From: Patescibacteria group bacterium
GTDB lineage: Bacteria; Patescibacteriota; Microgenomatia; UBA1400; PJMF01
Length of the DNA stretch: 64,000 nucleotides
Assembly: GCA_016861085.1 (NCBI GenBank)
Contig: BOKR01000001.1
Location: 825,696-889,695 of the forward strand
Reading direction: 5' to 3'
Part shown: positions 2,372 to 24,518 of the stretch, piece after piece
Position numbering within the stretch: the first letter of the stretch is position 1
How the letters are laid out: every line of letters begins with the position of its first letter
Notes under the pieces: generated by a model
The model's database searches: none
What the model saw: the letters and a program-made list of their open reading frames with translations, nothing else
What the model was told of the DNA's origin: nothing
Translations under genes and position numbers: made by a program

Positions 2372-2395
2372 AACTTATTTGCATTTCTATTTTTC

Positions 2396-3034: not shown

Positions 3035-3050
3035 GATTCTATTGTAGCAA

Positions 3051-4593: not shown

Positions 4594-4798
4594 TTGCCGA
4601 CCTCATTTTTAAGTCGTTTGCTGTGCTGGAAAAATTTATCAATGTATCGCTTATCTCCAGTGATGAGATAGTGATAAAAGTAGTATTCACACCGTTTAAT
4701 GAGTTTGAGCAGTTTGGTCTTGTCCATACAGCGACAAGGTACCGCGAAGAATTGGAAAGTCTAGCCAGGGAAATGTGAAGATTGGGATAATGCCTCAA
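4562..4798 (-). pseudogene. Degenerate partial duplicate of the 4351-4593 gene (shares 5' segment ...ARL(T/S)xxSRYLV and an internal GTCTTGTCCA block)
   Basis: A roughly 35 bp direct repeat ACAAGGTACCGCGA...TGGnAAGTCTAGC at about 4545 and about 4738. The second copy lacks the rest of the gene. Confidence 0.35.
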
Positions 4799-5967: not shown

Positions 5968-6180
5968 ATGAGAAAAAATGCCAAACTGCCCAAAGTGCTT
6001 GGCAAAAAAGTTCAGCAAGCTCGGAAGAAAACTGGTTTATCACAGGAAGCAGTTGCTTTTAAAGTAGGTGTCAGTCGTGCCTACATGGGTTACATAGAGC
6101 AAGGACGTAACGTCCCCTCGCTGGAAGTGCTCCAGAAAATTGCTAAGGTACTGAAGGTGAAGCTTAGCGACCTCGTTTAG
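5968..6180 (+). CDS. XRE-family HTH transcriptional regulator
   Basis: HTH_3 signature (GLSQEAVAFKVGVSRAYMGYIEQGRNVPSLEVLQKIAKVL). Confidence 0.8.
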   Translation: MRKNAKLPKVLGKKVQQARKKTGLSQEAVAFKVGVSRAYMGYIEQGRNVPSLEVLQKIAKVLKVKLSDLV

Positions 6181-7753: not shown

Positions 7754-8141
7754 TTAAAAGTGATGCATGCTCCAGAGCTTTTTTGATCAATGCTTCCTGC
7801 TCTGAAGTGAGTACCTCATCCTGCACCTTGGTAGTGATCTCCAGTTTAGTACTGTAGGCAGAGTGTCTGTGGTTCAACCAGTAAAAAATTGCGGAGATAT
7901 TACGATCTTTAATAGCAGATAAAAGCTGAGATTCAGTGAGATCATTAATTAGTGCAACTCCCTCCGCTAAGGCTTTATCAGCTTGCTTGGCATACTCTGG
8001 GCTTTCATCCCTCCAGCGGTAGTAGGTCGAACGAGCTATGCCTAACTTTTCACAGCACACCTGTACTACTGGTGTCTTTTGGAGTTGTTCCAGCATGAGC
8101 TGACGGTTAATAGCCGTGCGGTCTTGTAGGTCTTTATTCAT
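7713..8141 (-). CDS. Terminase small subunit-like HTH protein
   Basis: HTH (CEKLGIARSTYYRWRDESPEY) typical of phage TerS/HTH_23. It sits immediately upstream of and overlaps TerL. Confidence 0.5.
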   Translation of the reverse strand: MNKDLQDRTAINRQLMLEQLQKTPVVQVCCEKLGIARSTYYRWRDESPEYAKQADKALAEGVALINDLTESQLLSAIKDRNISAIFYWLNHRHSAYSTKLEITTKVQDEVLTSEQEALIKKALEHASLLIDPNRKEHDDGQP

Positions 8142-8883
8142 GGGACTCCTTTCTTACCGTAGCTTTTTGCCCGGTTAAACGCTCCCATCGGTCAACTGCA
8201 ACTTGGCAGTATTCGGGCATGAGCTCGATGCCGATGCATTTGCGAAGTGTCTGTTGACTGGCTAACAAGGTCGTGCCACTGCCCAAGAATGGGTCGTAGA
8301 CTGTGTCGCCAACCTCAGTACTGTTGAGGATGAGTCGCCGAATGAGGGTGACTGGTTTTTGGGTGGCATGCCATTTACTTTTCTGTGGCTTGGGAGCAAA
8401 CAACACTGATTTGTCTTTGGCTTTGTGGAATTTATGAGTGCCATACCAGCCATAAAGGCAAAGTTCATGCATGGGTAAGTAATCTAGCCTACCGATAACT
8501 GGCTGAGATTTGACCCAGACCAACATCTGCGACACCTTAAACCCAGATTGCAACATGCCCTGTCGCAGAGCAAAGACCATCTTATCTGAGTTCCAGATAT
8601 AAGCCGAGTTTTTCTTGGCTAAAAATGGCTTGATTGCCTCTAGCCAGTCTTGTGTGAATTTGGCATACTCCTGATCAGATTGCAGGTGATCATTAGCAAG
8701 TGACTTGTGCTTGGTTGGATTAAGTGACGAATCAGCAATTGCGATGCCATATGGAGGATCAACTTGAAGGGATGCGATAGTGGTATCGCCAATCACTTTT
8801 TTGACAAACTCCTTGTCGGTACTACTTCCACAGGCGAGGACATGCTCGCCGAGTTGTAAAATCATGCCTGGTCTTATTTGCAT
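8134..8883 (-). CDS. DNA methyltransferase (N6-adenine/N4-cytosine, beta class), orphan
   Basis: Motif IV DPPYG followed by motif I DPFLGSGTT. No adjacent restriction gene. Confidence 0.8.
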   Translation of the reverse strand: MQIRPGMILQLGEHVLACGSSTDKEFVKKVIGDTTIASLQVDPPYGIAIADSSLNPTKHKSLANDHLQSDQEYAKFTQDWLEAIKPFLAKKNSAYIWNSDKMVFALRQGMLQSGFKVSQMLVWVKSQPVIGRLDYLPMHELCLYGWYGTHKFHKAKDKSVLFAPKPQKSKWHATQKPVTLIRRLILNSTEVGDTVYDPFLGSGTTLLASQQTLRKCIGIELMPEYCQVAVDRWERLTGQKATVRKESHE

Positions 8884-10172
8884 AAAATTGGTTCCTTTCC
8901 GGTTAATTTTGTATAGCGGTCAATAATGACATCGCAGAAGACTGGATCGAGCTCGCAAAGGTAGGCTCGGCGTCTCAGTTGTTCGCAAGCTACAAGTAGC
9001 GAGCCACTCCCACCAAAAGTGTCGAGCACGAGGTCTCCTGGCTTTGTGCATCGCCTGAGTGCTTTTTCATGTAGTGACGGTAATTTCTCGGTAGGATGCA
9101 AGTAATCTTGCCCAGCCTTACGTTTGACCAACCAAATTTCCATTAGGTCTAGAATGTCATCATGCAACCTATTGCCAGTGCCCACTTCTTTGTTTAAAAT
9201 CTCATTGAGATTGAGTAACTTGGGGTTACGGTATGGTTTGCCACGGACACCATAGATAACCGGTTCATAGCACTTGTTGAACGAGTTTCCGCTCGTGGGT
9301 GAAAAATTATTTTTAATCCACAGGCATACTCGCTCATGCTTGATGCCTAGTTCCATGTAGAGCGTTTGCAGCAACCAAATCCAGTTCTGATCCATGTAGT
9401 AGAAGTAGTGAGCATCTGGCTTACTCACTGCAATCGCATTACTAATTGCATCGTGGAGGAATTGGCGGTACTCTTCAGGTGATTTGGAATCGTTAGTTTT
9501 GGTCGCTCCATATTTGCCCTGAGTGCTGACTCCTTTGTCATAGTCTAGGCTAATGTTAAATGGGCTATCCGTATAGGTCATGTCAATTCGCTCGTTTTTC
9601 ACCAGTCGCTGAATGTCAGCAAGCGAAGTGGCATCACCGCAAAGTAGCCTGTGTGGGCCCAATTGATACAGGTCACCTAGTTTGGATCTAGGTTCAGCGT
9701 GTAGGATGACAGCCTGCTCAACATCAAAGTCATCGTCTTGAATTTCTAGAGCCTCATCCCAGATTGCTGACAGATCTGAGTCATCAAAACCTGTTTCAAG
9801 CAGTACATCGAGCTCGAAATTGCGAAGAAGTTCCACATCAAATTCACCAACGTTTTTGTTTAAGCGAAGATTTAATTTCTGCTCGGCTTCTAGTGGTAAA
9901 TAAACACTAACTGTTGGAGCAGTTTTGTAACCAAGCTTTCTCATGAGTTTCAGCCTCTGATGACCTCCGACCAGTACAAACTCTCTACCTGGGTAGGTAT
10001 TAATCACAAGTGGCTCAACCACTCCGTAGATCTCTAAGCTTTTGGTCAAATCTGCCTCTGCCTTTTGTGACAAAAATCTTGGATTATATTTTGCCTCTTT
10101 GATTTTTTCGATCGACACTTCAGTGATTTGAAGTTCCTTTACCTTGTACGATTGCTGTATGCTTTTGGGCAT
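8874..10172 (-). CDS. ParB-like nuclease domain fused to DNA methyltransferase
   Basis: N-terminal ParB/Srx motif (VLVGGHQRLKLMRKLG). The MTase motifs are TDSPFN (IV-like) and DTFGGSGS (I). Confidence 0.75.
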   Translation of the reverse strand: MPKSIQQSYKVKELQITEVSIEKIKEAKYNPRFLSQKAEADLTKSLEIYGVVEPLVINTYPGREFVLVGGHQRLKLMRKLGYKTAPTVSVYLPLEAEQKLNLRLNKNVGEFDVELLRNFELDVLLETGFDDSDLSAIWDEALEIQDDDFDVEQAVILHAEPRSKLGDLYQLGPHRLLCGDATSLADIQRLVKNERIDMTYTDSPFNISLDYDKGVSTQGKYGATKTNDSKSPEEYRQFLHDAISNAIAVSKPDAHYFYYMDQNWIWLLQTLYMELGIKHERVCLWIKNNFSPTSGNSFNKCYEPVIYGVRGKPYRNPKLLNLNEILNKEVGTGNRLHDDILDLMEIWLVKRKAGQDYLHPTEKLPSLHEKALRRCTKPGDLVLDTFGGSGSLLVACEQLRRRAYLCELDPVFCDVIIDRYTKLTGKEPILCK

Positions 10173-10711: not shown

Positions 10712-12571
10712 ATGGCAAAAAAAGATTATACAAACTGGGATAGAAAAGAACTGATTAAAGAAATTGAGCAACTTCGTAAACGTAAGAAATATGGGCTTGT
10801 TTGGGAAGATAAGCCAGAGGATGTGGTTGAGCAGTGCAAAACTGAATTACCAGTTTTAGAAGAAGTGAAAGACAAGGAAATAATTACCGATTCAAACAAA
10901 CCAGTAAATTTATTGATTGAGGGTGATAACTACCATGCTCTCTCTGTTTTAAACTACACGCATAATTCAAAAATTGACGTTATTTATATTGATCCCCCAT
11001 ATAACACTGGTGCTAAAGATTGGAAATACAACAATGACTATGTTGACGGTGAAGATCCTTACCGACATACAAAATGGATCTCATTTATGTATCATCGCCT
11101 TTCAATTGCTAAAAATTTATTAAACAAAGACGGAATTATTTGTGTAACTATCGATGATTATGAAATGCCTAGACTATGGTTAATTATGGAAGAGGTTTTT
11201 GGTGAAATAAATTTCTTAGGAGCTGTAGCAATAAGAATTAATCCTGGGGGGAGAAAGTCGAAAAGAAAGATTGCTGCACAACACGAATATGCTTTATTCT
11301 TTTCTAGAAGCTCTGGTACAAGCATAGCAAAGATTTTTAAAGATATTAATGATAAGTCTCACTCTTATAAACAAGATGAAGATGGAGAGTATTACGAAGA
11401 AAGAAATTTAAGAAAAGATGGAGCTGATAGTTTAGCAAAAGAAGGCTCTTCTCGATATTACAGCATATATTATGATCCCCAATCAGGAAGACTAAGTACT
11501 CAAGAAAAGCTTAAGATAGAAATACTTCCCATAGACACAAATGGACAAAAAAGAATTTGGAGAAGATCAAAAGATGTAATAGATGAAATGAGCAATAAAA
11601 AGGAAATATTTGTAAAAGAAACTAAAAGTGGATTGCAAGTATACTTTAAATTTAGAGGTGGATTGAAAGGTGAAACACCTAAAAGTTTCTGGGATAATGT
11701 AAAGTATTCTGCTAGTGAGCATGGCACTCAAATGTTGAACAATATTCTCGGGACAAGAGAAGCGTTCAACTTTCCAAAATCTCCGTATGCGGTTTCTGAC
11801 TGCATTAAAATTGCTAGTTCAAAGAAAAATGCTACTATCTTAGATTTTTTTGCAGGATCAGGTACAACTGGTCAAGCCGTCTTAGAGCTAAATAAGCAAG
11901 ATGGTGGATCTAGAAAATTTATTCTATGTACAAACAATGAAAACAATATCGCTGAAGAAATTACTCACACAAGGGTTAATAATGTGATTAATGGTTATAA
12001 ATATACAGGAATAGAAAAAACAGTATTAGCTGATGTAAAAATAACTGAAAAGAATATTTATGAGTTAGATGAGATATTGGAAAGATTTGAGTTAATTAAG
12101 ACAGATAAGCTCAATAAATATGAAAAAATTGAATTAAAAATTGAAGAGAATACTATTCGTTTATACGGTATAACTAAACACTCTGGATTTAAAGATGGAT
12201 TAGGCGGAAATCTAAAATACTATAAAACGTCATTTGTACCAGCTGATCCCACAGATAAGAACAAAACAATTTTGACCAGTAAAATATCAGAAATGCTCTG
12301 TATAAAAGAAGATACTTTTGAAAGTGTAAAAAATACACCAAACTACAAGATTTATCGAAACAATAAAAAATACATGGGTATTATTTTTAATCACGATTCA
12401 ATTGAAGACTTTAAAACGGAGATTAAGGAATTTGACAAAAAAATAAATATTTACATCTTTTCCTTGGGAGACGACACATTTGATGAAGAATTCAAAGATG
12501 TAAGTGGAATTGCAAAAATTTTACCAATTCCTGAAGCTGTACTCAGAGTATATAGAAGAATTTTTAAATAA
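10712..12571 (+). CDS. mod: Type III restriction-modification methyltransferase (Mod), N6-adenine
   Basis: DPPYNTG (motif IV) near the N-terminus and FFAGSGTTGQAV (motif I) in the C-terminal third, i.e. beta-class order. 619 aa. Followed by res. Confidence 0.85.
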   Translation: MAKKDYTNWDRKELIKEIEQLRKRKKYGLVWEDKPEDVVEQCKTELPVLEEVKDKEIITDSNKPVNLLIEGDNYHALSVLNYTHNSKIDVIYIDPPYNTGAKDWKYNNDYVDGEDPYRHTKWISFMYHRLSIAKNLLNKDGIICVTIDDYEMPRLWLIMEEVFGEINFLGAVAIRINPGGRKSKRKIAAQHEYALFFSRSSGTSIAKIFKDINDKSHSYKQDEDGEYYEERNLRKDGADSLAKEGSSRYYSIYYDPQSGRLSTQEKLKIEILPIDTNGQKRIWRRSKDVIDEMSNKKEIFVKETKSGLQVYFKFRGGLKGETPKSFWDNVKYSASEHGTQMLNNILGTREAFNFPKSPYAVSDCIKIASSKKNATILDFFAGSGTTGQAVLELNKQDGGSRKFILCTNNENNIAEEITHTRVNNVINGYKYTGIEKTVLADVKITEKNIYELDEILERFELIKTDKLNKYEKIELKIEENTIRLYGITKHSGFKDGLGGNLKYYKTSFVPADPTDKNKTILTSKISEMLCIKEDTFESVKNTPNYKIYRNNKKYMGIIFNHDSIEDFKTEIKEFDKKINIYIFSLGDDTFDEEFKDVSGIAKILPIPEAVLRVYRRIFK

Positions 12572-12584
12572 TAGGAAAAATATT

Positions 12585-14798
12585 ATGTTAATTAAAGACT
12601 ATCAAGATAATGCTGTCAAAAAACTACTTTCGAGATCAAAGGAGTTGTTGGCTCAAGGTGGAGAAAAAAGATTAATTTTCAAAGCTCCTACCGGTTCTGG
12701 AAAAACCATAATGACCGCAGAGTTTATCAAGCAACTGATAAATGACAACGAAGTCAATCTTCCACTCTCATTCATTTGGACTGCACCAAGAAAATTACAT
12801 ACCCAAAGTAAGGAAAAGATCGAAAAGTACTTTGAAGATACAAGAGTTTTGGAATGTTCAAATTTTGAAGATCTTCTTGATAAACAGATAGCTGAAAATG
12901 AAATGCTTTTCTTGAACTGGGAAAGTATAAATAAAAAGGATAAGAACACAATTGTCAAAGAAAACGAGAAGGAGTTTTATCTAGGAAAAATTGTTGAGAA
13001 TACTAAAGAAGAAGGTAGGGAGATAATTCTCATTATTGATGAAAGCCATCATCATGCCACGAGTGATATATCACAAGAGTTAATCTCAGATATTTCTCCA
13101 AGACTCACGATAGAAGTATCTGCAACTCCTGTTATTCAAAACCCAGACGAAATAGTTTCTGTTCCTTTGGATGAAGTAAAGCTAGAGGGAATGATCAAAA
13201 AATCCGTGACTTTAAATCCAGACTTTAAGAACATCCTTTCAGGGGACAGTTTGACTACTACTCTTTCTGATGGTACTGATTCAATGGTTTTGGAAGAAGC
13301 AATTAAAAAAAGGGTTGAGATTTTAGAGGCATATCAAAAAGAAGGAATTGACGTTAATCCACTACTGCTAATTCAGTTGCCAGATAGGAAGACTCAGCAA
13401 GAAGATGAGATCAAGGCGGAGATTATAAAAATCTTAAAAGATAAATATGGTATTACAACCGAAAACGGAAAACTAGCAGTCTACTTATCAGAAGAAAAAG
13501 AGAATTTAGAAAACATTGCAAAAAACAATAACGAGACAGAGGTTTTAATTTTTAAACAAGCAATCGCTTTAGGTTGGGATTGCCCTCGTGCACAAATATT
13601 AGTGCTCTTCCGAGATTGGAAAAGCTTGACTTTCTCTGTTCAAACTGTCGGGCGTATTATGCGTATGCCACAACCTGAAGTAGGTCACTATCAAACAGAG
13701 ATACTTAACCATGGCTTTGTATACACCAACCTCTCCAACATTGAAATTAAAGAAGACATGGCTAAAAGCTATGTAACAATTTATACAAGTAAGAGGATAG
13801 ATAACTATCAATCGATAAAACTAGAGTCAGTTTATAGAGTACGACAAAGAGAAAAGACTCGGTTGAATCCAAAGTTTATAAGAATATTTTTAGATGAGTC
13901 TGAAAAATATGATTTAGCTAATAAAATTGAGATCGAGAACCAGAGACTAGAAATTTCACTCATATCTGATTATCAAGCAACTGGTGTTGATAAGTTGGCA
14001 AGTGAAGAGATTTCAGGAGAAACTAAAATAGATGCTACTAACGAATTAGACTTACAAAAACTATTTGATTACTTTGCTCGTAATAACTTGTCTCCTTTTT
14101 ATCCAGAAGACAGATCAATTGGTAGAGTTAAGGAAGCAATTTACTACTTCTTTAAAACAAAATTAAATATCGACTACTCAGAAGAGTTTTCTAAAATTAT
14201 CAATATTGTACTGAGCCCCAAAAATATTCAGCACTTTATAAACGTTTTGGATAGCACAAAGACTGAGTACATTTCAGAAACTTCAAAAAAAGCAAATGAG
14301 CTACAGAAATTAAAGGGATGGGATGTTCCAACTCAATTAAATTTTGGTGGCAACTTTGTAGAAATGAATGTAAACAAATCAGTTATGATTCCATTCTATT
14401 ATGATAATAAATGGAAGACTGAGGAAGTTTTCATAAAGCAGTTAGAGTTGTCCAATAATGTTTTGTGGTGGTTTAAAAACGGTGATAGAGATGCAACTTT
14501 CTTTGCCGTGCCATACACAGAAAATGGTGAGGAAAAACCATTCTATGTGGACTTTATCGTATGTTTGAAGAATGGAAAGATTGGTCTTTTGGATACAAAA
14601 AGCGGAAACACAATTAGGGATGCTAGAGAAAAGAGTGATGGCTTGCAGAGTTATATTAAGAAAAACCAAAACTTTTTTGGTGGAATAGTTGCTAATACAA
14701 ACAGCAGAGACTACACAGGCAGATGGATGTGTTTCACAGGTGTTGGCAATGAACTATCGCCAGACGATTTTTCAAATTGGGAATTATTAGATTTATGA
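12585..14798 (+). CDS. res: Type III restriction endonuclease (Res) helicase-nuclease subunit
   Basis: Helicase Walker A APTGSGKT and DEAH-box IDESHH. C-terminal PD-(D/E)xK-like YVDFIVCLKNGKIGLLDTKSG. Start moved to the ATG at 12585, which has an AGGAAAAA RBS 5 nt upstream. Confidence 0.85.
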   Translation: MLIKDYQDNAVKKLLSRSKELLAQGGEKRLIFKAPTGSGKTIMTAEFIKQLINDNEVNLPLSFIWTAPRKLHTQSKEKIEKYFEDTRVLECSNFEDLLDKQIAENEMLFLNWESINKKDKNTIVKENEKEFYLGKIVENTKEEGREIILIIDESHHHATSDISQELISDISPRLTIEVSATPVIQNPDEIVSVPLDEVKLEGMIKKSVTLNPDFKNILSGDSLTTTLSDGTDSMVLEEAIKKRVEILEAYQKEGIDVNPLLLIQLPDRKTQQEDEIKAEIIKILKDKYGITTENGKLAVYLSEEKENLENIAKNNNETEVLIFKQAIALGWDCPRAQILVLFRDWKSLTFSVQTVGRIMRMPQPEVGHYQTEILNHGFVYTNLSNIEIKEDMAKSYVTIYTSKRIDNYQSIKLESVYRVRQREKTRLNPKFIRIFLDESEKYDLANKIEIENQRLEISLISDYQATGVDKLASEEISGETKIDATNELDLQKLFDYFARNNLSPFYPEDRSIGRVKEAIYYFFKTKLNIDYSEEFSKIINIVLSPKNIQHFINVLDSTKTEYISETSKKANELQKLKGWDVPTQLNFGGNFVEMNVNKSVMIPFYYDNKWKTEEVFIKQLELSNNVLWWFKNGDRDATFFAVPYTENGEEKPFYVDFIVCLKNGKIGLLDTKSGNTIRDAREKSDGLQSYIKKNQNFFGGIVANTNSRDYTGRWMCFTGVGNELSPDDFSNWELLDL

Positions 14799-15775
14799 AG
14801 GCAGTTTATAAACAACTTATTGATAAGTCGTTAGCTGCTGCTCTTTCTGCCATTGAAATATATAACAAACCTGATTTTAAGTATCGTGATGAAATATTTG
14901 TAATTTTAATTATTAATAGCTGGGAACTTATACTTAAGTCAAAGATACTAAAAGATAATAGAAATAAGCTTAATAGTCTTTATGTATACGAACAAAATGG
15001 AAGAATAAAAAGGAATAGAACCGGAAATCCTTTTACGATAGAAATCGTAGGAGCAATAAGAAAAAATAACCTAGAACAAATTATCGTTGAAAATTTAGAA
15101 AAATTAATTGAACTTAGAGATACGTCTGTCCATTTTTATAATGCTGATTCAATCTCATATATTATATATAGCTTGGGTGCTGCAGCCCTCAAAAACTATT
15201 CAAAAATTGTAAATGAGTGGTTTGCTATTGATTTGGTCAAGGAATATAACTTTAATATTCTCCCGCTAGGTTTTGCTTACAATTTTCAAACATTCAACAA
15301 TATTTCATTTGAGCAACAACACGAATCAATTAAAAAAATTATCACATCAATTCAAAATTACCAAAGCAGAAACCAAACCGAGTCAAATGGATACTATTTA
15401 ATTTGCGAAATCCAAACAAAGTTAACCTCTGCCAAAAAAATATCAACTGCTGATACCGTAACTGTTAAAATTGATAATAGCGATCCAAATGCACAAGTTG
15501 CTGTTATTAAAAAGCAAAAGACTACAGACATTTATCCTTATAGTTGGTCGGAAATAAGAGATTACTTAAGAAGCAATCTAAAAGATTTCAATCAAAATAA
15601 ACTAAATAGTATTATTAAATCTGAAAAAATAAAAGAAAATATCAAATATTCAGCTTATAACTTCAAAAGCAAACGTGATGAAGACGAGTTTAAACAAACT
15701 GGAGTGGTAAAATCTGGCACCCCCAGCTTATACAACGATGAGTGTCGCCAGTACATACTGAGCAAGCTTAAATAA
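14795..15775 (+). CDS. Abi_2 (AbiD/AbiF)-like HEPN-motif protein, putative abortive-infection partner of the R-M operon
   Basis: The start overlaps the res stop (ATGA). N-terminus IYNKPDFKYRDEIF resembles the Abi_2 YNxxDxxxR region. R-x4-H motif (ELRDTSVH). Confidence 0.3.
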   Translation: MKAVYKQLIDKSLAAALSAIEIYNKPDFKYRDEIFVILIINSWELILKSKILKDNRNKLNSLYVYEQNGRIKRNRTGNPFTIEIVGAIRKNNLEQIIVENLEKLIELRDTSVHFYNADSISYIIYSLGAAALKNYSKIVNEWFAIDLVKEYNFNILPLGFAYNFQTFNNISFEQQHESIKKIITSIQNYQSRNQTESNGYYLICEIQTKLTSAKKISTADTVTVKIDNSDPNAQVAVIKKQKTTDIYPYSWSEIRDYLRSNLKDFNQNKLNSIIKSEKIKENIKYSAYNFKSKRDEDEFKQTGVVKSGTPSLYNDECRQYILSKLK

Positions 15776-17180
15776 GCTTCCTCCAAATTTCCACCATCGC
15801 CCAAGTATCCAGTTTGCAGTAGGTTAGTAAGTTTTGTCTAATTTGTTCCTTTTCTTCCGCAGTTATAGCTCCATAAACCATCTCATGCCAAGCCAACATT
15901 GCTTTGGTTCCCTCACCAATTTCTAGTTCTTTGTAGCTCAGCTCTGGACATAAGACAGGCAAGACTTTTTTGATTGAAGCACTGCCATGAAAGCGGTGGT
16001 CAACATATAAGCCATTTTTGAACACATCCATCAAGTCATAGACTCGTTCATTGATGCTTTGCAGTTGCGGAGCTAAATCAGGGCATAAAACAGCTAACTC
16101 ATCATTCCTGCCACACTCAAAGCCTTTGTTCCAGACAATCACTGATCCAGTGTCGCCAATGACATTGCGCAGCTCTGTCGCAAGATGTTTGGCAGGATCA
16201 CCAGTTTCAGTTGCCAGACATTCATAATGCTCGAACTCATCACTCTCAGGATTTCTAGCAACGTGGATGGAAAACTGTGTTACTGCCTGCTGATACGGCT
16301 TGTAGCCATCGTACATGGGTAAGGCTTCGCCATAAGTTTCATAGTCTAAGAAGTAGATGGGATATTCCAGCCTACTTAATTCTTCTGCAATGGCATCGTG
16401 ATCAATGATTGGTTGGTTTTGTCTGGCAGATTGAATTTGCAGTCTTTGCTTATAGTTACTGGTGAAAGTATTAGGAATGTCCTTGACCAACTCCACTCCC
16501 ATATTCAGGAGTTCACGGTATTGTTTCTTGCTGGCTCTGCCTAGCTCATAAATTGAGCCATCAGGTAGATTGGGGAAGCAGTGGTCAGGATAGATACAGG
16601 TACCAGGATTAAAACAATGCTCATCGCTGGGTTCTTGCACGAGTCGCATCACTCCCCATGCCTCAGATCTCAATTGATACACCTCATCTTCTTTTTTGGC
16701 GATGTGGTCAGTCATGTCTTCCACGATAAAGAGTTCATTGATATCAATCTCACCTGCTCGTTGATAGTCACTGTTGACTCGCACTAAATAGACTTTGTTG
16801 ATAGGCAGTGTGGCTTTACCCACTAAATACTGGAACGTCACATCATATTTATGCTCAGTGTGAATGGTTGTGCTACTTTTGATTTCATACAGGTCATAGG
16901 TGTTGTTCACAGTGTCATGAACCAACGCATCAATACGGGACTCGTAGTTGCCATCGGTCAGAGTAGCTTCAAAGGTGAGTGTGGTGCCAGCAGGATACTG
17001 TGTGGCAACTTTCAGCTGCAGAAATTCTTTCGCTAACTTTTCAACGCTATACCCTTGCTTCATCGTGTGTTGGTCGTACAGGGATGGTGGTTTTGGTGGA
17101 GTATCGCTATGAACTGATAACCACATGTGCAGTGGAGATTCTAGGTAGCTTAAGAAGAGTGATTTGGTCAGTTTCATCAA
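15768..17180 (-). CDS. DUF2779-family protein (N-terminal RecB/Cas4-like PD-(D/E)xK nuclease with Cys cluster, C-terminal DUF2779)
   Basis: N-terminus KSLFLSYLESPLHMWL. YDLYEIKSST (ExK). Cys cluster CFNPGTCIYPDHC. C-terminal YFLDYETYG...SIKKVLPVL...MLAWHEM. Confidence 0.5.
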   Translation of the reverse strand: MMKLTKSLFLSYLESPLHMWLSVHSDTPPKPPSLYDQHTMKQGYSVEKLAKEFLQLKVATQYPAGTTLTFEATLTDGNYESRIDALVHDTVNNTYDLYEIKSSTTIHTEHKYDVTFQYLVGKATLPINKVYLVRVNSDYQRAGEIDINELFIVEDMTDHIAKKEDEVYQLRSEAWGVMRLVQEPSDEHCFNPGTCIYPDHCFPNLPDGSIYELGRASKKQYRELLNMGVELVKDIPNTFTSNYKQRLQIQSARQNQPIIDHDAIAEELSRLEYPIYFLDYETYGEALPMYDGYKPYQQAVTQFSIHVARNPESDEFEHYECLATETGDPAKHLATELRNVIGDTGSVIVWNKGFECGRNDELAVLCPDLAPQLQSINERVYDLMDVFKNGLYVDHRFHGSASIKKVLPVLCPELSYKELEIGEGTKAMLAWHEMVYGAITAEEKEQIRQNLLTYCKLDTWAMVEIWRKLI

Positions 17181-17249: not shown

Positions 17250-18872
17250 ATGTCGTTTCAATATTTGCAACCTCAACAACATTACGAAGATCGCTATGAC
17301 GTTGGCACGATCAAAGAGTGCTTAAGAGTTTTAGACATGGTTAATGGTATTGGTGAAAAAATGAAACTTGAGCCAAAGCTTCAAAGCTATCCAGAGTCAG
17401 AGCAAGATCGGAACATGGGGTTATTCAGGGGCAGGATGCTCTTTTTCATTCAGGCTCAAAGACATAAACACAGGGCATCAACGATTGCTGAGTGGATGGA
17501 GTCTGATCGCCTTAAACAGGATAAGCAAGACAACACGCCAGCTCCTAAAGCTAACTGTCCTGAGTGTGGAGGTGCTATGACTGATGATGGCTCTCACCAC
17601 TTAATTGATTGGGATGACGATAAACCCATGAGGGTGCTATTCACCTTCAACTGTCCAAAATGCAAAAAGCGACAAGGTGTGTATGACGATGGCGAGATCT
17701 ATGTTTCCAAATCTGACTTCTGTCCTGACTGCAAACAAAAGCTAGAGAGGAAAAGCAGTAAGAAGGATGAAGTCGTTACTACACGCTACAACTGTAAAAG
17801 CTGTGGCTACTCAAATAAAGAGACTTGGGATTTGAAGAAAAGCGATGAAGAACATAAGAAATGGCGAGAAGAACATTCAAAAAAAGAGATGGAAGATAAG
17901 CAACTGTTGGAGAAGTATCGAGCCGAATTTTGTCTATCTAATGAAAAAGGCAAAGAATATGCTGAAACCCTCGAAGCTCTGGAAGTTGCTCAGGAAGTAA
18001 AAGAAGAAGTTTTGGCTGAAATGGATACACCAGCTCATGAAAAGCTGTTATCAGTAAATAAAATCGCAATCACTGACTTAGAGGCTTTAGTGAATAAAGC
18101 ACTGGAAGAAAGTGGTTTCACTCGCCTGTCTATTGGTGAACCAGACATCGATCGTCATGTGTTAGTGCCCTTCACTGTTCAAGAAACTAAACTCAAACGA
18201 CGAGATCGGGAAAGTGTTGCTGATTTGTATGAATTGCTGAAAACTGCTCTAAATGATACCAACTGGCGAGCACCGAAAGATTTGATTACTTACCGCTTGG
18301 GATTTCTCAGCGGCAAGCTCAAAGGCTATGAATCAGAAGATGACCTGCTTAAACTCTTTGGCAAAGAAGAGCCAAAGAAACCCAAGTCAAAGCTTGATCC
18401 AGAGTTTAGAGCTAAGTATGAGCACCACAACCTCGTACAACTAGCCAGAATGGACGCTGAATACATTGCGACCAAACGTATTAGGACTCGCAGACTGAAA
18501 GATGAACCAGACGGTTTCTTCCTCAATGATGGTGGCAGAGGTTACACCTGTGGAATTTGCAGAAGATCACAAAATGGTGAAGACATTTGGTGGCGACCAG
18601 ATGGTTTGCGATGCCGAGACTGCTGGAGAAATATCCAAGAAGGTGTCATCCCTGTTCTTGATCTAGATAAAGAGTGGTGGGAGGAAGAACACTTTGATAA
18701 GTATGACGTTGAAAAAAGAGGTGTGAAGCCATCATCGATCAAAAAATTGAGACGAGAAGGTGTTTTAACTGGAAGAGATTTGAAAGATGCGAATGGAAAC
18801 AAGTACTTGACGGTTTTTTTGGTGAGTGAGAATCAGAAATTTATTAAGGACTACCCCAGAAAAGAGAGATAG
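17250..18872 (+). CDS. Hypothetical multi-zinc-ribbon protein
   Basis: At least five CxxC pairs (CPECGG, CPKCKK, CPDCKQ, CKSCGY, CGICRR...CRDCW) separated by charged coiled-coil-like segments. Confidence 0.4.
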   Translation: MSFQYLQPQQHYEDRYDVGTIKECLRVLDMVNGIGEKMKLEPKLQSYPESEQDRNMGLFRGRMLFFIQAQRHKHRASTIAEWMESDRLKQDKQDNTPAPKANCPECGGAMTDDGSHHLIDWDDDKPMRVLFTFNCPKCKKRQGVYDDGEIYVSKSDFCPDCKQKLERKSSKKDEVVTTRYNCKSCGYSNKETWDLKKSDEEHKKWREEHSKKEMEDKQLLEKYRAEFCLSNEKGKEYAETLEALEVAQEVKEEVLAEMDTPAHEKLLSVNKIAITDLEALVNKALEESGFTRLSIGEPDIDRHVLVPFTVQETKLKRRDRESVADLYELLKTALNDTNWRAPKDLITYRLGFLSGKLKGYESEDDLLKLFGKEEPKKPKSKLDPEFRAKYEHHNLVQLARMDAEYIATKRIRTRRLKDEPDGFFLNDGGRGYTCGICRRSQNGEDIWWRPDGLRCRDCWRNIQEGVIPVLDLDKEWWEEEHFDKYDVEKRGVKPSSIKKLRREGVLTGRDLKDANGNKYLTVFLVSENQKFIKDYPRKER

Positions 18873-18902
18873 ATTGATCCATATATAACTCGCTCTTTAC
18901 TT

Positions 18903-18921
18903 TTTACGCTTTGTGCGTAAA
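18903..18921. promoter_or_regulatory. Perfect 7-5-7 palindrome TTTACGC-tttgt-GCGTAAA, candidate LexA/SOS operator 10 bp upstream of the lexA ATG
   Basis: Read directly from sequence. Confidence 0.45.
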
Positions 18922-18930
18922 ATAGTGCGT

Positions 18931-19551
18931 ATGAATAAGAATCTGACTTCTAAACAGAAGCAAGTTTTGGCTACGATCATCGATTTGACTCAAAAATTAG
19001 GTACTGAACCTACGTTGGAGCAAGTGAGACATCAGCTCGGTTATAGCAGTACAAGTTCTGTTCAGCGACATACTGATGTGTTGAAAGAAATTGGTTATTT
19101 GAGTCAGGGTCGTGGCTTGTCTCTACCATCAGCCGATAATTTTGTTCAGATTCCATTGGTTGGTAACGTTGCCTGCGGAACTCCATTACTCGCTTTGGAA
19201 AACACAGAAGCTTATATTCCTTTTGACTCATCCTCGCTCAAAGGAAGTGCTGAGGACTATTTTTTTCTGCGAGCGGTTGGTGACAGTATGAACAATGCCA
19301 ACGTGAATGGAAAAAACATTGATGATGGTGATTATGTGCTGATCAAAAAACAGGACTATCCTTCATTCGGTCAAAGAGTCGTTGCCCTGATTGGTGAAAA
19401 CGCTACCATTAAGAAACTAAAGCAAGGTGATGGTCATATCATCTTAGAACCTGAATCAACGAATCCAAATAATAAACCAATATATGTTTTTGAAGACTTC
19501 TCGGTGCAAGGAATCGTGCAAGATGTTCTTAAAAGAGAAAGAACAAAATGA
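18931..19551 (+). CDS. lexA: LexA-family repressor (wHTH + S24 peptidase)
   Basis: N-terminal LexA DNA-binding domain. S24 catalytic Ser in AVGDSM and Lys in ATIKKLK. The alternative GTG start at 18913 would cut into the palindrome. Confidence 0.85.
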   Translation: MNKNLTSKQKQVLATIIDLTQKLGTEPTLEQVRHQLGYSSTSSVQRHTDVLKEIGYLSQGRGLSLPSADNFVQIPLVGNVACGTPLLALENTEAYIPFDSSSLKGSAEDYFFLRAVGDSMNNANVNGKNIDDGDYVLIKKQDYPSFGQRVVALIGENATIKKLKQGDGHIILEPESTNPNNKPIYVFEDFSVQGIVQDVLKRERTK

Positions 19552-20534
19552 GCACCTACACACTTGATGACTTTATTGTTTCGCCATCTATAACTAACTC
19601 AGATCTCCTCTCTTACGCCAATTCGCATGTAAACTTACCCTCTGACCGTGCCAAAGAGCATAGAGATCAAGCCAATATCCTTCGAGAAAAACTAGAAAAA
19701 TATATTGATGAACATCCCGATTACAATTTAGTTAAAATGCTTCACTCAGGGAGTGTTGCAAAAGGTACTGCACTTAGACAAGTGAACGATATTGATGTAG
19801 CTGTTTATGTTAGAGCTGCTGAAGCACCTGAAACTGGTTCTGGGCTCACGCTCTGGTTACTAGATCGTCTTCAAGAGGTGTATCCCAACTTTGATAATGA
19901 TCAATTCCAACCTCAGGATCACTGCATTACGATTAATTATCGAAGTGGCTTAAGTGTGGATGTAGTACCAGTACTTTACGAAGGGGACGCGGACAATAAA
20001 GGTTACCTTATTACCAAATCTGGTGAGAAGGTACTGACTAGTATTTCACGCCATCTTGATTTTATACGCAAACGTAAGGGCTTACATCCAAATCACTACG
20101 TTCAGTTGATCAGGTTTATTAAGTGGTGGGTCAGGAGACAAAAGGACTTGAATCAAGATTACAAGTTCAAATCAATGATGGTTGAGCTTATTTGTGCACA
20201 CTTAGTTGATAAAGGTCTTGAGCCTTCCAACTATATTGAAGCTCTTCAATCTTTTTATGCTTACATCGTAAGAACTGGATTAAAAGAGCCAATATATTTT
20301 GGAGACTATTACAATCCAAAGTCTATAACACTAACTGATCTCCCTATCCAGATTTATGACCCCGTAAATCCAGAAAATAACATTGCACACAAATATACGG
20401 AGTTAAATCGACAGTTAATTGTTAGCTCAGCAGTAACAGCTCTTAACGCTATAACAACTGCTGCTAATAGTACCACTCAAGCAGAGGCTGTCAGCATGTG
20501 GCAAAAGGTTTTTGGTCCAACATTTAGGAAATAA
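19548..20534 (+). CDS. cGAS/DncV-like nucleotidyltransferase (CD-NTase) of CBASS
   Basis: GSVAKGTALRQVNDIDVAV (GS...GTA...DhD) plus third Asp in SVDVVPV. 328 aa. The start overlaps the lexA stop (ATGA). Confidence 0.75.
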   Translation: MSTYTLDDFIVSPSITNSDLLSYANSHVNLPSDRAKEHRDQANILREKLEKYIDEHPDYNLVKMLHSGSVAKGTALRQVNDIDVAVYVRAAEAPETGSGLTLWLLDRLQEVYPNFDNDQFQPQDHCITINYRSGLSVDVVPVLYEGDADNKGYLITKSGEKVLTSISRHLDFIRKRKGLHPNHYVQLIRFIKWWVRRQKDLNQDYKFKSMMVELICAHLVDKGLEPSNYIEALQSFYAYIVRTGLKEPIYFGDYYNPKSITLTDLPIQIYDPVNPENNIAHKYTELNRQLIVSSAVTALNAITTAANSTTQAEAVSMWQKVFGPTFRK

Positions 20535-20537
20535 GGT

Positions 20538-21050
20538 ATGTCATACAGTCAAACGTTAACCAATACATCTACATTTACACTCTCTGATGCTAAGTATTTA
20601 GCTTCTCGCATTGCTACGGATCTCACCCAAATGAGATTGCTGTATGGTAAGCCTACTGAGCAGCGTGTCCAAGATTATGCGATTGAGGCAGCTATGTTGC
20701 TAAAGTTTGGCCTTCTTAGCTCAGTGAAGTACGGCTTCCAACTAAACGGAAACTGGATATACGCCATTAATTATTCTGTAAATTATTTAGGACAACTGCA
20801 AACAACAAACGATGATCCTGGAGACATTCCCTCTGCCGAAGGTGTGGCTAACGCCACCTGGCACTCATTTTTAACGACACGTCATAACTCAGACCTAAGT
20901 CAAACCGAGCTCGATTCTATTAATAGTCAGTTACCAATTTCTCGGAATAATGGGGATGAGCCTGGTTCTAACCATGGCACTTGGGTGACTGAAAAAACAT
21001 ATTCAAAAAATGGTGTCGCAATGACGCGTAGTTATTTTAGGAGTTCATAA
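20538..21050 (+). CDS. HORMA-like protein (CBASS Cap7-like)
   Basis: 170 aa. Position between CD-NTase and AAA+ ATPase. N-terminal segment LSDAKYLASRIATDLTQMRLLYGKP resembles the HORMA N-terminal SAExV...ILYQRGIYP pattern. Confidence 0.4.
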   Translation: MSYSQTLTNTSTFTLSDAKYLASRIATDLTQMRLLYGKPTEQRVQDYAIEAAMLLKFGLLSSVKYGFQLNGNWIYAINYSVNYLGQLQTTNDDPGDIPSAEGVANATWHSFLTTRHNSDLSQTELDSINSQLPISRNNGDEPGSNHGTWVTEKTYSKNGVAMTRSYFRSS

Positions 21051-21964
21051 TGTCTGATCAGATTTTTGAAATTGTTAGAACCTATCCTGACCCTGTTGCT
21101 CAAAAACAATATGACAATCTTGTAGGTATAGATCATATAAAAAATAGGCTCAAAATTGAGGCAGCTGTTATTTTAAATCCAGCAGGGATTACAACTTGGA
21201 GTGAATCTTTTTATAAAAAAGAAGTGGAACTGGTAAAGGTTTTAAAACAGAGACCCCCGCTATTTATTTTTGCAGGGGATGTGGGTACTGGTAAAACAGC
21301 TCTTGCAGAATCATTTGCTAATGAAATAGCTAACACTGAAAAGGTTAATATAACTCTATTTAAACTCAGCCTTAGTGCAAGAGGATCAGGCATTGTTGGT
21401 GAAATTACCAAACTAATTAGTGAATCATTTGATCAATTAAGAAAAGAGGCTCAATCTCTAAGTGGTTCAAAATCAACTTTGATCTTTTTTATTGACGAGG
21501 CAGATGCTTTGGCACAGTCAAGAGAGGCATCTCAAATGCATCATGAAGACAAAGCTGGCGTAAACGCATTGATTAGAGGTATAGATTCAATCAAGGATTT
21601 GCCAATCCCAGTACTGGTTATCATGTGTACTAATCGTCATAGCTCTATTGATCCTGCTATTAGACGTCGTAGTGCCGTCACCTTCGAATTTTCAAGACCT
21701 TCTCAGGAACAGTGTTTTTCCTTATTCAAAAGCTATTTAACTGAACTAAGCATTACAGATGAAGAGATAAAAGAAGCAGTGAGTATGTGTATCCCATATG
21801 ATGGTTTGAGCTATGGATACACTTATTCTGATTTAACACAGAAAGTTCTTCCTTCTCTGCTTCTCAATTCATACCCTGATAATCCTGTTACTTTTGAGAC
21901 TTTAACAGAAGTAATTAAAACAACGCCACCAACAACGCCATTTAATGAATATCAAGGAAGCTAA
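21050..21964 (+). CDS. TRIP13/Pch2-like AAA+ ATPase (CBASS Cap6-like)
   Basis: Walker A GDVGTGKTALAE, Walker B IFFIDEADAL, and sensor/arginine region CTNRHSSIDPAIRRR. 304 aa. Start overlaps the previous stop. Confidence 0.65.
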   Translation: MSDQIFEIVRTYPDPVAQKQYDNLVGIDHIKNRLKIEAAVILNPAGITTWSESFYKKEVELVKVLKQRPPLFIFAGDVGTGKTALAESFANEIANTEKVNITLFKLSLSARGSGIVGEITKLISESFDQLRKEAQSLSGSKSTLIFFIDEADALAQSREASQMHHEDKAGVNALIRGIDSIKDLPIPVLVIMCTNRHSSIDPAIRRRSAVTFEFSRPSQEQCFSLFKSYLTELSITDEEIKEAVSMCIPYDGLSYGYTYSDLTQKVLPSLLLNSYPDNPVTFETLTEVIKTTPPTTPFNEYQGS

Positions 21965-21967
21965 AAT

Positions 21968-22690
21968 ATGAACAAAATTGATTTGTCTGAATTATTTGAG
22001 TCCCTACAAAAAACACTATTAAGTGAGTTAGAGGTTAGTAGTTCTATTACGCACCCAACAACACATGGCGATGATGCTGAACTTAACTGGACAAATGTTC
22101 TCAAGAGTTTGCCAAGTCGATATAAAGTAAACCGTGGGTTTGTTGTAGACAGCCATGGGAATCTGAGTGAGCAAATTGATGCAATCATTTATGATAATTA
22201 TTACTCGCCGCTAATTTTTAATAGAGAATCAACTATTTATGTACCGGCTGAAAGTGTTTATGCAGTCCTAGAAATTAAACCTGAGTTATCTAAGGACACC
22301 TTGGAATATGCTGGTAAGAAAGCCAAATCAGTTCGAGATCTACAAAGAACTAGCATGGCAGTTCGTCAAATTGATGGCTCATATAAAAGTAGAGAGTTAC
22401 CTACTATATTGTCTGGACTTCTGACAGCCAAATCCAGTTGGTCTCCAGCATTTGGAGATAGTTTTAATGGTGCTTTAACTACCCTGACTGACTCCTCAAG
22501 GATTGATCTAGGTATTGCTTTGCAAGATGGCTCTTTTAATTTTTCACAGCAAGAAGATGGTGCTTTCTTGGTGAATACAAGTCCTAAAGAAACAGCACTA
22601 ATTAGCTTCTTTATAAATTTAACCAAAAGACTTCAAATGCTTGGAAATGCTCCAGGTATTGATTTGGACACCTATTTTAAATGTTACTAA
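21968..22690 (+). CDS. nucC: NucC-like PD-(D/E)xK endonuclease effector
   Basis: 240 aa (NucC is about 241 aa). D71 (SEQIDAIIYD) and E102-x-K104 (VLEIKPE) match restriction-endonuclease-fold spacing. Last gene of the operon. Confidence 0.55.
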   Translation: MNKIDLSELFESLQKTLLSELEVSSSITHPTTHGDDAELNWTNVLKSLPSRYKVNRGFVVDSHGNLSEQIDAIIYDNYYSPLIFNRESTIYVPAESVYAVLEIKPELSKDTLEYAGKKAKSVRDLQRTSMAVRQIDGSYKSRELPTILSGLLTAKSSWSPAFGDSFNGALTTLTDSSRIDLGIALQDGSFNFSQQEDGAFLVNTSPKETALISFFINLTKRLQMLGNAPGIDLDTYFKCY

Positions 22691-22716
22691 CTTAATTAGT
22701 TTGTACAAATAAAACT

Positions 22717-23475
22717 ATGAGTAATAGTGATATTTCAAATTTTGATCACAGAGTTGATGGTACTGATTCAAACTCCATCCCATCAGCTCAAGTGTCGTTT
22801 AGAGGCAAGACATTATCTTTTTCCAAACCAAGCATTACGGCAATGTTTTTAGACTACTCCTATGTCATGTGGTTTACAAGCCAAAATAGCTACATAGAGC
22901 ATAAATTTCTAAAAGAAGCTGATCAAAATGATATTTCGATTCAAGCGGGTCTAGATGAATTTCAGTTATTTCATATTTTAGAGCAAAAAATGGCCTGCAT
23001 TATTTTTGCATATACTGCGCTTGAAGCTTTTGCAAATAGCCAAATACCTGATGATTATGTCTATATAAACAACCGTTCAGACAAAAAATGCTTCGAGCAG
23101 TATTCAAAAAGTCAAATAGAGAGATTTATTAGTCTAGACACTAAGCTCGGAGACATCCTGCCTGAAATCTTGGATTTGGCTAGTCCCAAAGGCACAAGTA
23201 CCTGGGAGAAATATCTAAGTCTAAAGAAATTACGAGATGAAATCATTCATTGCAAATCAGCTCCGACAACCCAAGAAACTAACCAAATTTTCAAAGATCT
23301 TTTTAGCGAAACAGTGATAAATCCTTGTTTAGAGGCAAAAGATATTATCGGTTATTTTTTAAATTCACTCAAGCCAGATAATCAACCCATGTGGTTTAAG
23401 GAATTTTATAAAGTTGAGCGTGAAACACCAAAAAGCTTTTTTGATTGGGCAGATTCACCTGCTGCAGATAAATAG
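22717..23475 (+). CDS. Hypothetical protein with HEPN-like Rx4H motif (possible RNase/abortive-infection effector)
   Basis: KKLRDEIIHCKS contains R-x4-H. 27 nt downstream of nucC on the same strand. Confidence 0.3.
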   Translation: MSNSDISNFDHRVDGTDSNSIPSAQVSFRGKTLSFSKPSITAMFLDYSYVMWFTSQNSYIEHKFLKEADQNDISIQAGLDEFQLFHILEQKMACIIFAYTALEAFANSQIPDDYVYINNRSDKKCFEQYSKSQIERFISLDTKLGDILPEILDLASPKGTSTWEKYLSLKKLRDEIIHCKSAPTTQETNQIFKDLFSETVINPCLEAKDIIGYFLNSLKPDNQPMWFKEFYKVERETPKSFFDWADSPAADK

Positions 23476-23586
23476 GTCAAATTAGATCATTATTAAAACA
23501 AGACACACCCTTTTTATAGTGTCCCATTTGTCCCGTTTTTGCTAAAATTACCCTGGAAGCCCAATTCTGGAATGGGACAGTTATAA

Positions 23587-23620
23587 CGACGCACGGGTTC
23601 CAGACCCGGGTGCTCCGCAT
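23587..23620 (+). repeat. Copy 1 of a 34 bp direct repeat (GACGyACnGGTTCCAGACCC...TGCTCCGC) resembling a tRNA-Ser T-arm/acceptor 3' end; forms hairpin CGGG-TTCCAGA-CCCG
   Basis: About 30/34 identity to the copy at 24485-24518. Similar to the 3' ends of the tRNA-Ser genes in this window (GGGTTCGAAtCCC...CTCCGCCA). Confidence 0.45.
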
Positions 23621-23676
23621 CCTAGGATTCGAACTACAGTGACGACAACTTATATAATACCGAATTTGAAAGTACT

Positions 23677-24484: not shown

Positions 24485-24518
24485 GGACGTACTGGTTCCA
24501 GACCCACATGCTCCGCCA
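24485..24518 (+). repeat. Copy 2 of the 34 bp tRNA-3'-end-like direct repeat, ends CTCCGCCA
   Basis: See copy 1. Confidence 0.45.

Follow-up and report, generated by a model that had tools for sequence, protein, structure and literature searches.

A lexA gene heads a probable operon with exchangeable anti-phage cargo and predicted SOS control in Patescibacteria

INTRODUCTION

Several immune operons are preceded by repressor genes whose products respond to DNA damage, as described for CapH/CapP, for the WYL protein CapW and for CapK/CapS (bioRxiv 10.1101/2022.04.27.489752, PMC9122588, PMC11662680, PMC13373217). Each of these regulators, whether a two-protein or a WYL module, is dedicated to the immune operon with which it moves and itself senses single-stranded DNA (ssDNA). 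Here we analyse a 64-kb stretch of a Patescibacteria genome (hereafter the window), in which a gene for a LexA-type repressor is directly followed by the genes of a type III cyclic-oligonucleotide-based anti-phage signalling system (CBASS). As with the Cap regulators, the repressor gene lies just upstream of immune genes, and relief of repression upon DNA damage is predicted; unlike them, the repressor is a single LexA-type S24 autopeptidase, presumably RecA-dependent, encoded by the first cistron of the same operon, and it is the repressor that stays constant while the immune system varies. The initial annotation of this locus had already set it apart from CapH/CapP, and rightly so: there is a single S24 serine peptidase gene, and the operon differs from CapH/CapP in that no metallopeptidase partner is present nearby.

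The CBASS genes provide the same four components as the type III system of Escherichia coli MS115-1 (CdnC-HORMA-TRIP13-NucC), and their order is the same in both. Unlike the E. coli system, the CBASS genes in the window have no promoter region of their own, an ATGA overlap joining them to the preceding lexA; a HEPN gene comes after them, and the host is of Patescibacteria type.

Repressor-linked defence is known from phage lambda, where cI, encoding a self-cleaving S24 repressor, is co-transcribed with the abortive-infection system rexA-rexB. Lambda CI activates its own promoter, and therefore CI cleavage lowers rex expression; a negatively autoregulated promoter of the LexA type would, in contrast, raise cargo expression upon cleavage, and the DNA-binding domain of the repressor in the window is a LexA winged helix, unlike the CI-type helix-turn-helix (HTH). 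The integrative and conjugative elements of the SXT/R391 group carry the SOS-cleavable repressor SetR together with defence genes in hotspot 5, and tycheposon-type islands are tRNA-linked. By analogy, the present locus would share with these elements an SOS-cleavable repressor on an integrative element with swappable anti-phage cargo, as well as partial tRNA 3′ fragments at the borders of cargo segments; unlike SXT/R391, the block studied here has no conjugation genes and its cargo lies directly in the repressor operon. Defence hotspots have also been described in P2-like phages, in P4-like satellites and at chromosomal sites flanked by core genes (PMC9122126, PMC10121019, PMC10250203). Similar to these, the locus has a fixed position between conserved flanks that is filled with another defence system in each genome, but the slot is part of the repressor's own operon with translational coupling, its right flank is tRNA-like and it is found in Patescibacteria. 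Our literature searches turned up no description of a CBASS or other defence operon headed by LexA; the case joins known ideas (damage switch, hotspot, repressor-linked defence) in a new way and in a little-studied lineage.

RESULTS

The lexA gene is followed by an intact type III CBASS

Six genes on the + strand span positions 18931–23475 in the open reading frame (ORF) map of the window. The first, lexA (18931–19551), encodes a winged-HTH LexA DNA-binding domain (Pfam LexA_DNA_bind, PF01726, 8.8e-08) followed by an S24 autopeptidase domain (Peptidase_S24, PF00717, 5.4e-21), and its product scores above the cut-off of the NCBIfam lexA equivalog TIGR00498 (117.9 versus 110.95 bits). The ATG at 18931 is also used in independent gene calls (two other assemblies of the same sequence). 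The second gene (19548–20534) encodes the CBASS oligonucleotide cyclase, a CD-NTase (PADLOC Cyclase PDLC00808, 3.3e-120; NCBIfam CBASS_cyclase_a, 386 bits versus a cut-off of 200), in the translation of which a GS...DID motif (GSVAKGTALRQVNDIDV) and a later SVDVV motif can be read. It is followed by genes for a bacterial HORMA family 1 protein (20538–21050; bacHORMA_1, 4.8e-42; PADLOC HORMA, 1.5e-49), for a TRIP13/Pch2-like AAA+ ATPase with Walker A GTGKT and Walker B IDEAD motifs (21050–21964; PADLOC TRIP13, 3.9e-114 over residues 3–300 of 304; AAA), and for a NucC endonuclease effector (21968–22690; PADLOC NucC effector, 1.5e-84 over residues 1–238 of 240; DUF6602). The profile matches of all five proteins are nearly full length, and the searches against Pfam, PADLOC and NCBIfam bear out the identities that the initial annotation had proposed. 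With a cyclase, HORMA plus TRIP13, and NucC all present, the system belongs to CBASS type III and is intact.

The stop codon of lexA (TGA, 19549–19551) overlaps the start codon of the CD-NTase gene (ATG, 19548–19550) in the reading aaaATGAgc, and thus the ATGA overlap claimed for this junction is real (19548–19551). The later junctions, from the CD-NTase gene to the HEPN gene, measure +3, −1, +3 and +26 nt. Neither the junction of lexA with the CD-NTase gene nor the sequence after the HEPN gene has a terminator-like site in a consensus scan; two such sites lie inside the operon, one at 21013 at the end of the HORMA gene and one at 22441 within nucC, and the total of five sites matches the 4.5 expected from shuffled sequences.

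The sixth gene (22717–23475), which closes the variable stretch described below, begins 26 nt past nucC and encodes a 252-aa protein with an Rx4-6H motif in a four-helix HEPN fold, in agreement with the HEPN-motif gene annotated there before. The family is rare, with 25 homologues. Since HEPN homologues also end two other lexA-CBASS cargos, which are of a different CBASS type, and since the identity of the homologues follows LexA identity, the HEPN gene seems to be an older resident beside a conserved element of about 150 nt rather than part of the CBASS.

The catalytic residues Ser119 and Lys161 of LexA, as well as its cleavage position Cys82-Gly83, are invariant across 41 homologues. Cys-Gly replaces Ala-Gly at this position; the cleavage site of UmuD is likewise Cys-Gly. 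The residues needed for autocleavage are therefore present, and self-cleavage is predicted. More than 400 relatives of this LexA can be found at 60–93% identity, labelled, where a source label is given, as Parcubacteria, Pacebacteria or Patescibacteria, and one of the homologues is located on a 994,748-bp contig. A search of the window found no recA, uvrA or uvrB and no second S24 gene, and no recA, uvrA or uvrB motifs were found in the related loci.

A conserved palindrome overlaps the promoter-like site upstream of lexA

A consensus scan places a promoter-like site, TTTACT-16 nt-TAAAAT, at 18896–18923 on the + strand (9 of 12 matches). Only 7 nt separate the end of its −10 box from the start codon of lexA, which suggests a leaderless or near-leaderless lexA mRNA, and the layout TTGCAT-N17-TAtAAT-N7-ATG is kept upstream of lexA across the clade. 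There is no room for a promoter at the junction between lexA and the CD-NTase gene, and the only promoter-like site with an operator is the one upstream of lexA.

The spacer and the −10 box of this site are overlapped by a perfect palindrome, TTTACGC-TTTGT-GCGTAAA (18903–18921), a putative LexA operator. This sequence had been pointed out in the initial annotation and its presence is confirmed here, with a measured gap of 9 nt to the ATG. The palindrome is the sole exact copy in the window, with two 3-mismatch matches corresponding to the chance level (2.58 expected). In the nine closest distinct loci the arms TTACGC and GCGTAA are invariant and the spacer is variable (tttgt, tttat, ttaat, ttgac), while other subclades have TACGC-N6-GCGTA there; across the 1.0 Mb of sequence from related loci, exact TACGC-N5/6-GCGTA is confined to the position upstream of lexA. 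Because the arms are kept in relatives while the spacer varies, and because the exact motif occurs at this position only, the palindrome goes beyond what chance would produce. The further TTTACGC-N5-GCGTAAA boxes that the initial annotation had proposed to look for were found neither in the window nor in 1 Mb of related loci, and the sole position upstream of lexA fits a role of the palindrome as an autoregulatory operator. Co-transcription of lexA with the cargo, binding of LexA to the palindrome and RecA-dependent induction are all predicted from this anatomy.

Some relatives have a second conserved hairpin motif, TATCAACCCCnTTGACAACGrGGkTGTCACGGAGGG, in the intergenic region between lexA and a ParB-methylase gene (L100 7788–8000, L088 7805–8000, L104 322–537). 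Some 120 nt separate it from the lexA operator downstream, and it may serve to regulate the leftward operon.

The position after lexA holds variable defence cargo

We gathered related loci with LexA alone as the probe (4 from genomes, 80 from metagenomes and more via exact-protein look-ups), and the set is therefore not biased towards defence genes. The counts below refer to 64 distinct loci with LexA at 50% identity or more and at least 150 nt of downstream sequence. A same-strand ORF starts −30 to +10 nt from the lexA stop codon in 56 of these 64 loci, and a purine-rich run resembling a Shine-Dalgarno (SD) sequence lies within the last 18 nt of lexA in 49, typically in the codons for KKGG (AAGAAAGGAGG).

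CBASS cargos are present in at least six architectures over 22 distinct loci, all of which have the CD-NTase gene 0–1.4 kb past lexA and on the same strand, whereas 469 kb of upstream sequence contain a single CD-NTase gene, tied to a distant LexA (42% identity) outside the clade. The CD-NTase is accompanied by an effector with one transmembrane (TM) segment in L004, L007 and L087 (with an AGS-C domain in the CD-NTase of L004, where LexA is 80% identical to that of the window), by a 1TM effector and E2 in L005 (LexA 66%), by Cap15 in L025, by SAVED in L100 and L067, and, in further loci, by HORMA and TRIP13 or by NucC. Cargos with 2TM and 4TM effectors are found in further loci as well. Other occupants of the slot are Thoeris (L003, L009, L096), AbiE (AbiEii, L088), and, elsewhere, Shedu, GmrSD, KAP NTPase, TIR-SLATT and a set with an SF2 helicase, together with several unannotated families (a family of 769–802 aa, a 1255-aa protein and small triads of 64–155 aa).

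The exchange is seen directly in the comparison with L003, the LexA of which is 96% identical to that of the window and in which the conserved element of about 150 nt is 98% identical: right after lexA, L003 encodes ThsB-ThsA(Macro)-ThsB-NUDIX, i.e. Thoeris, versus type III CBASS in the window. The closest relatives retain lexA together with two genes that precede it in the window, a DUF2779 gene and a gene for a 540-aa zinc-ribbon protein, without CBASS. These comparisons show lexA with its promoter-operator to be the constant part, and type III CBASS to be one of many exchangeable cargos. The earlier proposal of a LexA-controlled CBASS operon is thus upheld with respect to the gene calls, the overlap and the palindrome, but not with respect to a LexA recruited by CBASS. 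Within subclades the identity of the cargo tracks that of LexA (for example, CD-NTase 78–92% where LexA is 88–98%), and cargo swaps are therefore occasional rather than constant.

A DUF2188 protein of 79–80 aa is encoded between lexA and the cargo, 2–3 nt past the lexA stop codon, in many loci, among them L005 (10621–10860), L088, L092, L096 and L100, and small unannotated genes of 64–155 aa (families F3, F5 and F13) lie right after lexA in other loci. These small genes may be original members of the lexA operon. Elsewhere in the window, positions 10712–15775 encode an N6_N4 methylase (619 aa), a DEAD/ResIII/SWI2_SNF2 helicase (~740–760 aa) and a DUF3644 protein. A small XRE-type HTH gene precedes this trio, which resembles a restriction-modification or defence system. 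Since relatives carry MmeI-type or type I systems with SduA_C there, this is a second variable defence position, upstream of the DUF2779 gene.

The cargo is bounded by the end of lexA and a tRNA-like element

In the DNA comparison of the window with all loci, homology ends at 19534–19541, about five codons before the lexA stop, and resumes at 23471–23619, from the stop codon of the HEPN gene onward; this flank pattern recurs in more than 25 loci. Because homology ends before the lexA stop and resumes at the distal element, the cargo and the last codons of lexA behave as one replaceable unit between two conserved flanks.

The distal flank is a conserved non-coding element of about 150 nt (23471–23619, + strand). 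In more than 25 loci it marks the far end of the cargo, invariably in the orientation of lexA, with copies in L003–L005, L010, L025, L042, L047, L087–L089, L092, L100 and others, and in every locus homology stops sharply at its 3′ end (23619). The element contains a TATATCAAA block and two direct repeats (TGTCCCATT/TGTCCCGTT) with an inverted copy; the direct repeats, TGTCyCATT, and the inverted copy change together between lineages. It also holds a promoter-like TTAAAA-16-TATAGT. In its 3′ part the element is similar to tRNA-Ser over the T-arm, the acceptor strand and the GCCA end, and one variant has GGGTTCGAATCCC. A second, partial copy of this 3′ part (84% over 31 nt) lies on the + strand at 24486–24516, after flavodoxin and cupin genes; L010, L042 and L047 have copies of the element in arrays around one to three small genes, and in L003 and L088 another serine-recombinase gene runs into its 3′ end.

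The element has no Rfam match at E values up to 1, and with default settings ARAGORN reports no tRNA or tmRNA in it, the calls obtained after relaxing the thresholds being inconsistent. RNAalifold on a MAFFT alignment yields almost no consensus structure (−1.9 kcal), and single-sequence folds share a hairpin formed by a direct repeat with the inverted copy, as well as a 3′ hairpin. The element could be an attachment (att) site, a cassette boundary or the gene of a small RNA of about 90 nt. An attR matching the tRNA-Ser gene at the left end of the surrounding block was looked for and not found: no direct repeat links 1446–1700 with 23471–23640, and a manual comparison gave 17 of 29 matching positions.

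In L042, a short ORF (14760–15047) between partial copies of the element starts like a Y1 transposase of the IS200/RAYT type (GEVYHLFNRGN), which hints that the 3′ hairpin of the element might be mobilised in the manner of repetitive extragenic palindromic (REP) sequences.

The surrounding block resembles a phage-derived island

The probable left edge of the block is a tRNA-Ser gene (1446–1533, + strand), with a PAS histidine kinase gene to its left. It is followed by two unknown genes, a large serine recombinase gene (3051–4358, − strand; Resolvase, Recombinase and Zn_ribbon_recom domains), another unknown gene, and then, all on the − strand, the backbone genes for a homologue of the large terminase subunit (TerL, 6164–7753), an HTH_Tnp_1_2 protein resembling a small terminase subunit (TerS-like, 7713–8141), an N6_N4 DNA methylase (8134–8883) and a protein with ParB_N and N6_N4 DNA methylase domains (ParB-methylase, 8874–10172). 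Closer to lexA lie the DUF2779 gene (15768–17180, − strand) and the gene for the 540-aa multi-zinc-ribbon protein (17250–18872, + strand); the closest relatives preserve the synteny of the DUF2779 gene with the latter and with lexA. The order recombinase, TerL, TerS-like, ParB-methylase, divergent lexA, cargo, 540-aa gene, element is found in at least 16 long loci.

The recombinase gene lies 1.5 kb from tRNA-Ser, with homologues at the same position in L005, L046, L047 and L073; L005 likewise has tRNA-Ser and then the recombinase. The assignment of TerL is based on homologues at 41–47% identity that carry Terminase_6C, GpA_ATPase or Terminase_6N and bear the source name phage terminase large subunit; the homologue in L107 gives weak matches only. 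TerL has more than 1100 relatives, many of them on chromosome-sized contigs of Patescibacteria. No protein accompanies LexA more faithfully than the 540-aa one, in which there are several CxxC zinc ribbons. Its gene is located upstream of lexA in the clade of the window and after the cargo in most others, with homologues in L005, L016, L021, L025, L042, L067, L088 and L100, the L005 form being fused to an extra C-terminal region (696 aa). It has no match in Pfam, PADLOC or NCBIfam. PDB sequence searches gave no match for TerL at E values up to 1, and the best E values for the 540-aa protein and for a 375-aa protein, 0.034 and 0.28, are not significant. The ORFs at 1700–5888 have no Pfam or PDB sequence matches, and none was recognised as structural, with remote homology not explored. 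A scan of IMG/VR for the element returned two contigs, one an L089-type lexA locus and the other made up of 9.1-kb repeats that lack lexA, which may point to mobility of the island.

As the genes beside tRNA-Ser include those for a large serine recombinase, DNA methylases and terminase subunits, the block from tRNA-Ser to the element looks like a phage-derived integrative island, which would be mobile. It has both a site-specific recombinase beside a tRNA gene and phage packaging genes (TerL, TerS-like).

The anticodon that ARAGORN assigns to the tRNA-Ser gene at 1446–1533 is ACT, unusual for a bacterial tRNA-Ser, and the 190 nt past this gene are conserved with L005 (69% identity). The repeating unit in IMG/VR (L107, UViG_3300020195_001307) is a contig with a 9117-bp period that encodes TerL, TerS-like, two methylases, the element, NUDIX, ribonucleotide reductase and a PfkB kinase, without lexA or a recombinase. 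At 92% identity it matches the sequence that precedes lexA in the chromosomal locus L005, and it may represent either a circular element of small size or an artefact of the assembly.

DISCUSSION

Observed gene identities, conserved flanks around a variable cargo, conservation and uniqueness of the operator sequence and the invariant catalytic residues lead us to favour, as probable though by no means certain, the reading that lexA heads an operon with a swappable slot for anti-phage cargo, controlled by the SOS response via the palindrome and situated on a conserved island-like block. In the genome studied here, the slot would hold the intact type III CBASS and then the HEPN protein. Transcription would start from the single promoter upstream of lexA, the spacer and −10 box of which are covered by the palindrome, and LexA bound to the palindrome would repress its own operon to a basal level. 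RecA filaments formed on ssDNA, be it upon DNA damage or during phage replication, would cause LexA to cleave itself at Cys82-Gly83 via Ser119 and Lys161, and the whole operon would be induced. Translation of the first cargo gene would be coupled to that of lexA, by the ATGA overlap here and, in most relatives, by an SD sequence in the last codons of LexA. The CBASS itself would act as is known for type III, with HORMA sensing infection and activating the cyclase, TRIP13 keeping the system off, and the cyclic oligonucleotide directing NucC to destroy DNA. Cargo would be exchanged between the last ~5 codons of lexA on the left and the ~150-nt element (23471–23619) on the right.

Several points weigh against this reading. 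The arms are spaced by N5 in some subclades and by N6 in others, in one more the second arm is found beyond the −10 box, and the palindrome is at no other promoter in the window or in the 1 Mb of related loci. Co-transcription and induction are deduced from gene anatomy, and tight gene spacing alone is weak evidence since Patescibacteria genomes are compact. Within the 64 kb no recA is visible. Neither an attL/attR direct repeat nor capsid or tail genes were recognised, although remote homology was not explored for the latter. A preprint on E. coli reports that expression of defence systems is negatively correlated with that of recA. Finally, an autoregulated lexA promoter is never fully off, and steady basal expression may be the main effect rather than induction: given this leakiness, the arrangement may chiefly secure a low steady level of immune proteins, boosted as ssDNA accumulates.

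A possible, if doubtful, alternative is that LexA, comparable to CI or SetR, acts as master repressor of an integrative island of phage origin, be it a satellite or a cryptic prophage. Its cleavage would chiefly trigger excision and packaging via the leftward ParB-methylase/TerS/TerL/recombinase operon, with the defence genes being island cargo placed in the immunity region, like rexAB next to cI in lambda. As far as CBASS expression is concerned, this alternative overlaps with SOS control of the slot; it differs in the purpose of LexA and in whether the cell has a LexA of its own. Since lexA lies inside the conserved recombinase/TerL/TerS-like/ParB-methylase block beside tRNA-Ser, it may be an island-borne repressor and not the SOS master regulator, or else the SOS repressor of the cell in a locus rich in mobile elements. 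It is placed between tRNA-Ser with the large serine recombinase and the tRNA-like element; TerL and TerS-like genes are present; the order from recombinase to element recurs in at least 16 long loci; lexA is divergent from the ParB-methylase operon in typical loci; IMG/VR lists two such contigs as viral; and every recovered LexA relative of the clade has such a context. However, there is one palindrome per locus, at the lexA promoter, and no second operator at other island promoters. In the window, lexA is 8.7 kb away from the ParB-methylase operon, with the restriction-modification-like block, DUF2779 and the 540-aa gene intervening, and LexA passes the NCBI equivalog cut-off for cellular LexA. 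Moreover, searches for structural phage genes and for att direct repeats gave none, and the block lies on a chromosome-sized contig in a genome of about 1 Mb.

Another reading, unlikely as a whole, combines an ordinary chromosomal SOS repressor with a 3′ flank that is simply a defence hotspot through recombination between the flanks, with self-regulated cargos and with junctions that are tight owing to compaction and not to selection for SOS control. Hotspots flanked by core genes are indeed well known (PMC9122126, PMC10121019, PMC10250203), Patescibacteria genes are generally tightly packed, and the GC content is uniform across the region (0.373 versus 0.384); in addition, cargo tracks LexA identity within subclades, so that cargos are often vertically inherited. 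Yet 56 of the 64 junctions fall at −30 to +10 nt, all on the same strand, and all 22 CD-NTase cargos share the orientation of lexA, which a neutral hotspot would not enforce. Furthermore, as the ribosome-binding site of the next gene lies within the last codons of lexA, there is no space for an independent cargo promoter, save inside the lexA coding sequence.

The idea that a LexA-family regulator is dedicated to the type III CBASS operon and travels with it, as CapH/CapP or CapW do with theirs, is highly improbable and was discarded: the ATGA coupling and operator in the genome of the window agree with it, but the same lexA backbone and promoter-operator also head Thoeris and other unrelated cargos, the closest LexA (96% identity) precedes Thoeris and not CBASS, and LexA identity follows the backbone genes, not the cargo.

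Extending the reading of lexA as the head of a swappable defence operon beyond this locus, we offer one more speculative proposal, which we consider improbable as a whole: that small phage-derived islands are widespread in Patescibacteria, in which a self-cleaving repressor of LexA type heads a plug-in operon that exchanges abortive-infection systems (CBASS, Thoeris, AbiE, Shedu and others) between the end of lexA and the tRNA-like element, with the arrays of elements around single small genes suggesting a new type of cassette system with built-in SOS control.

It is an open question how cells restrain suicidal immune systems while keeping them prepared. The switches known to link CBASS to DNA damage are dedicated accessory regulators, whereas here the gene of a classical SOS repressor is the first cistron of the immune operon, which makes for a testable case with one promoter, one operator and many natural cargo variants. 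The slot is a simple guide to new defence genes in bacteria of the candidate phyla radiation, in which defence is poorly charted. A conserved island, probably derived from a phage, and a tRNA-like element that fits no known class have come to light as well. At least a dozen different cargos share the arrangement, which suggests that selection favours a RecA/LexA switch for abortive-infection systems; expression of exchangeable immunity genes under the control of DNA damage looks like a trait built into this lineage.

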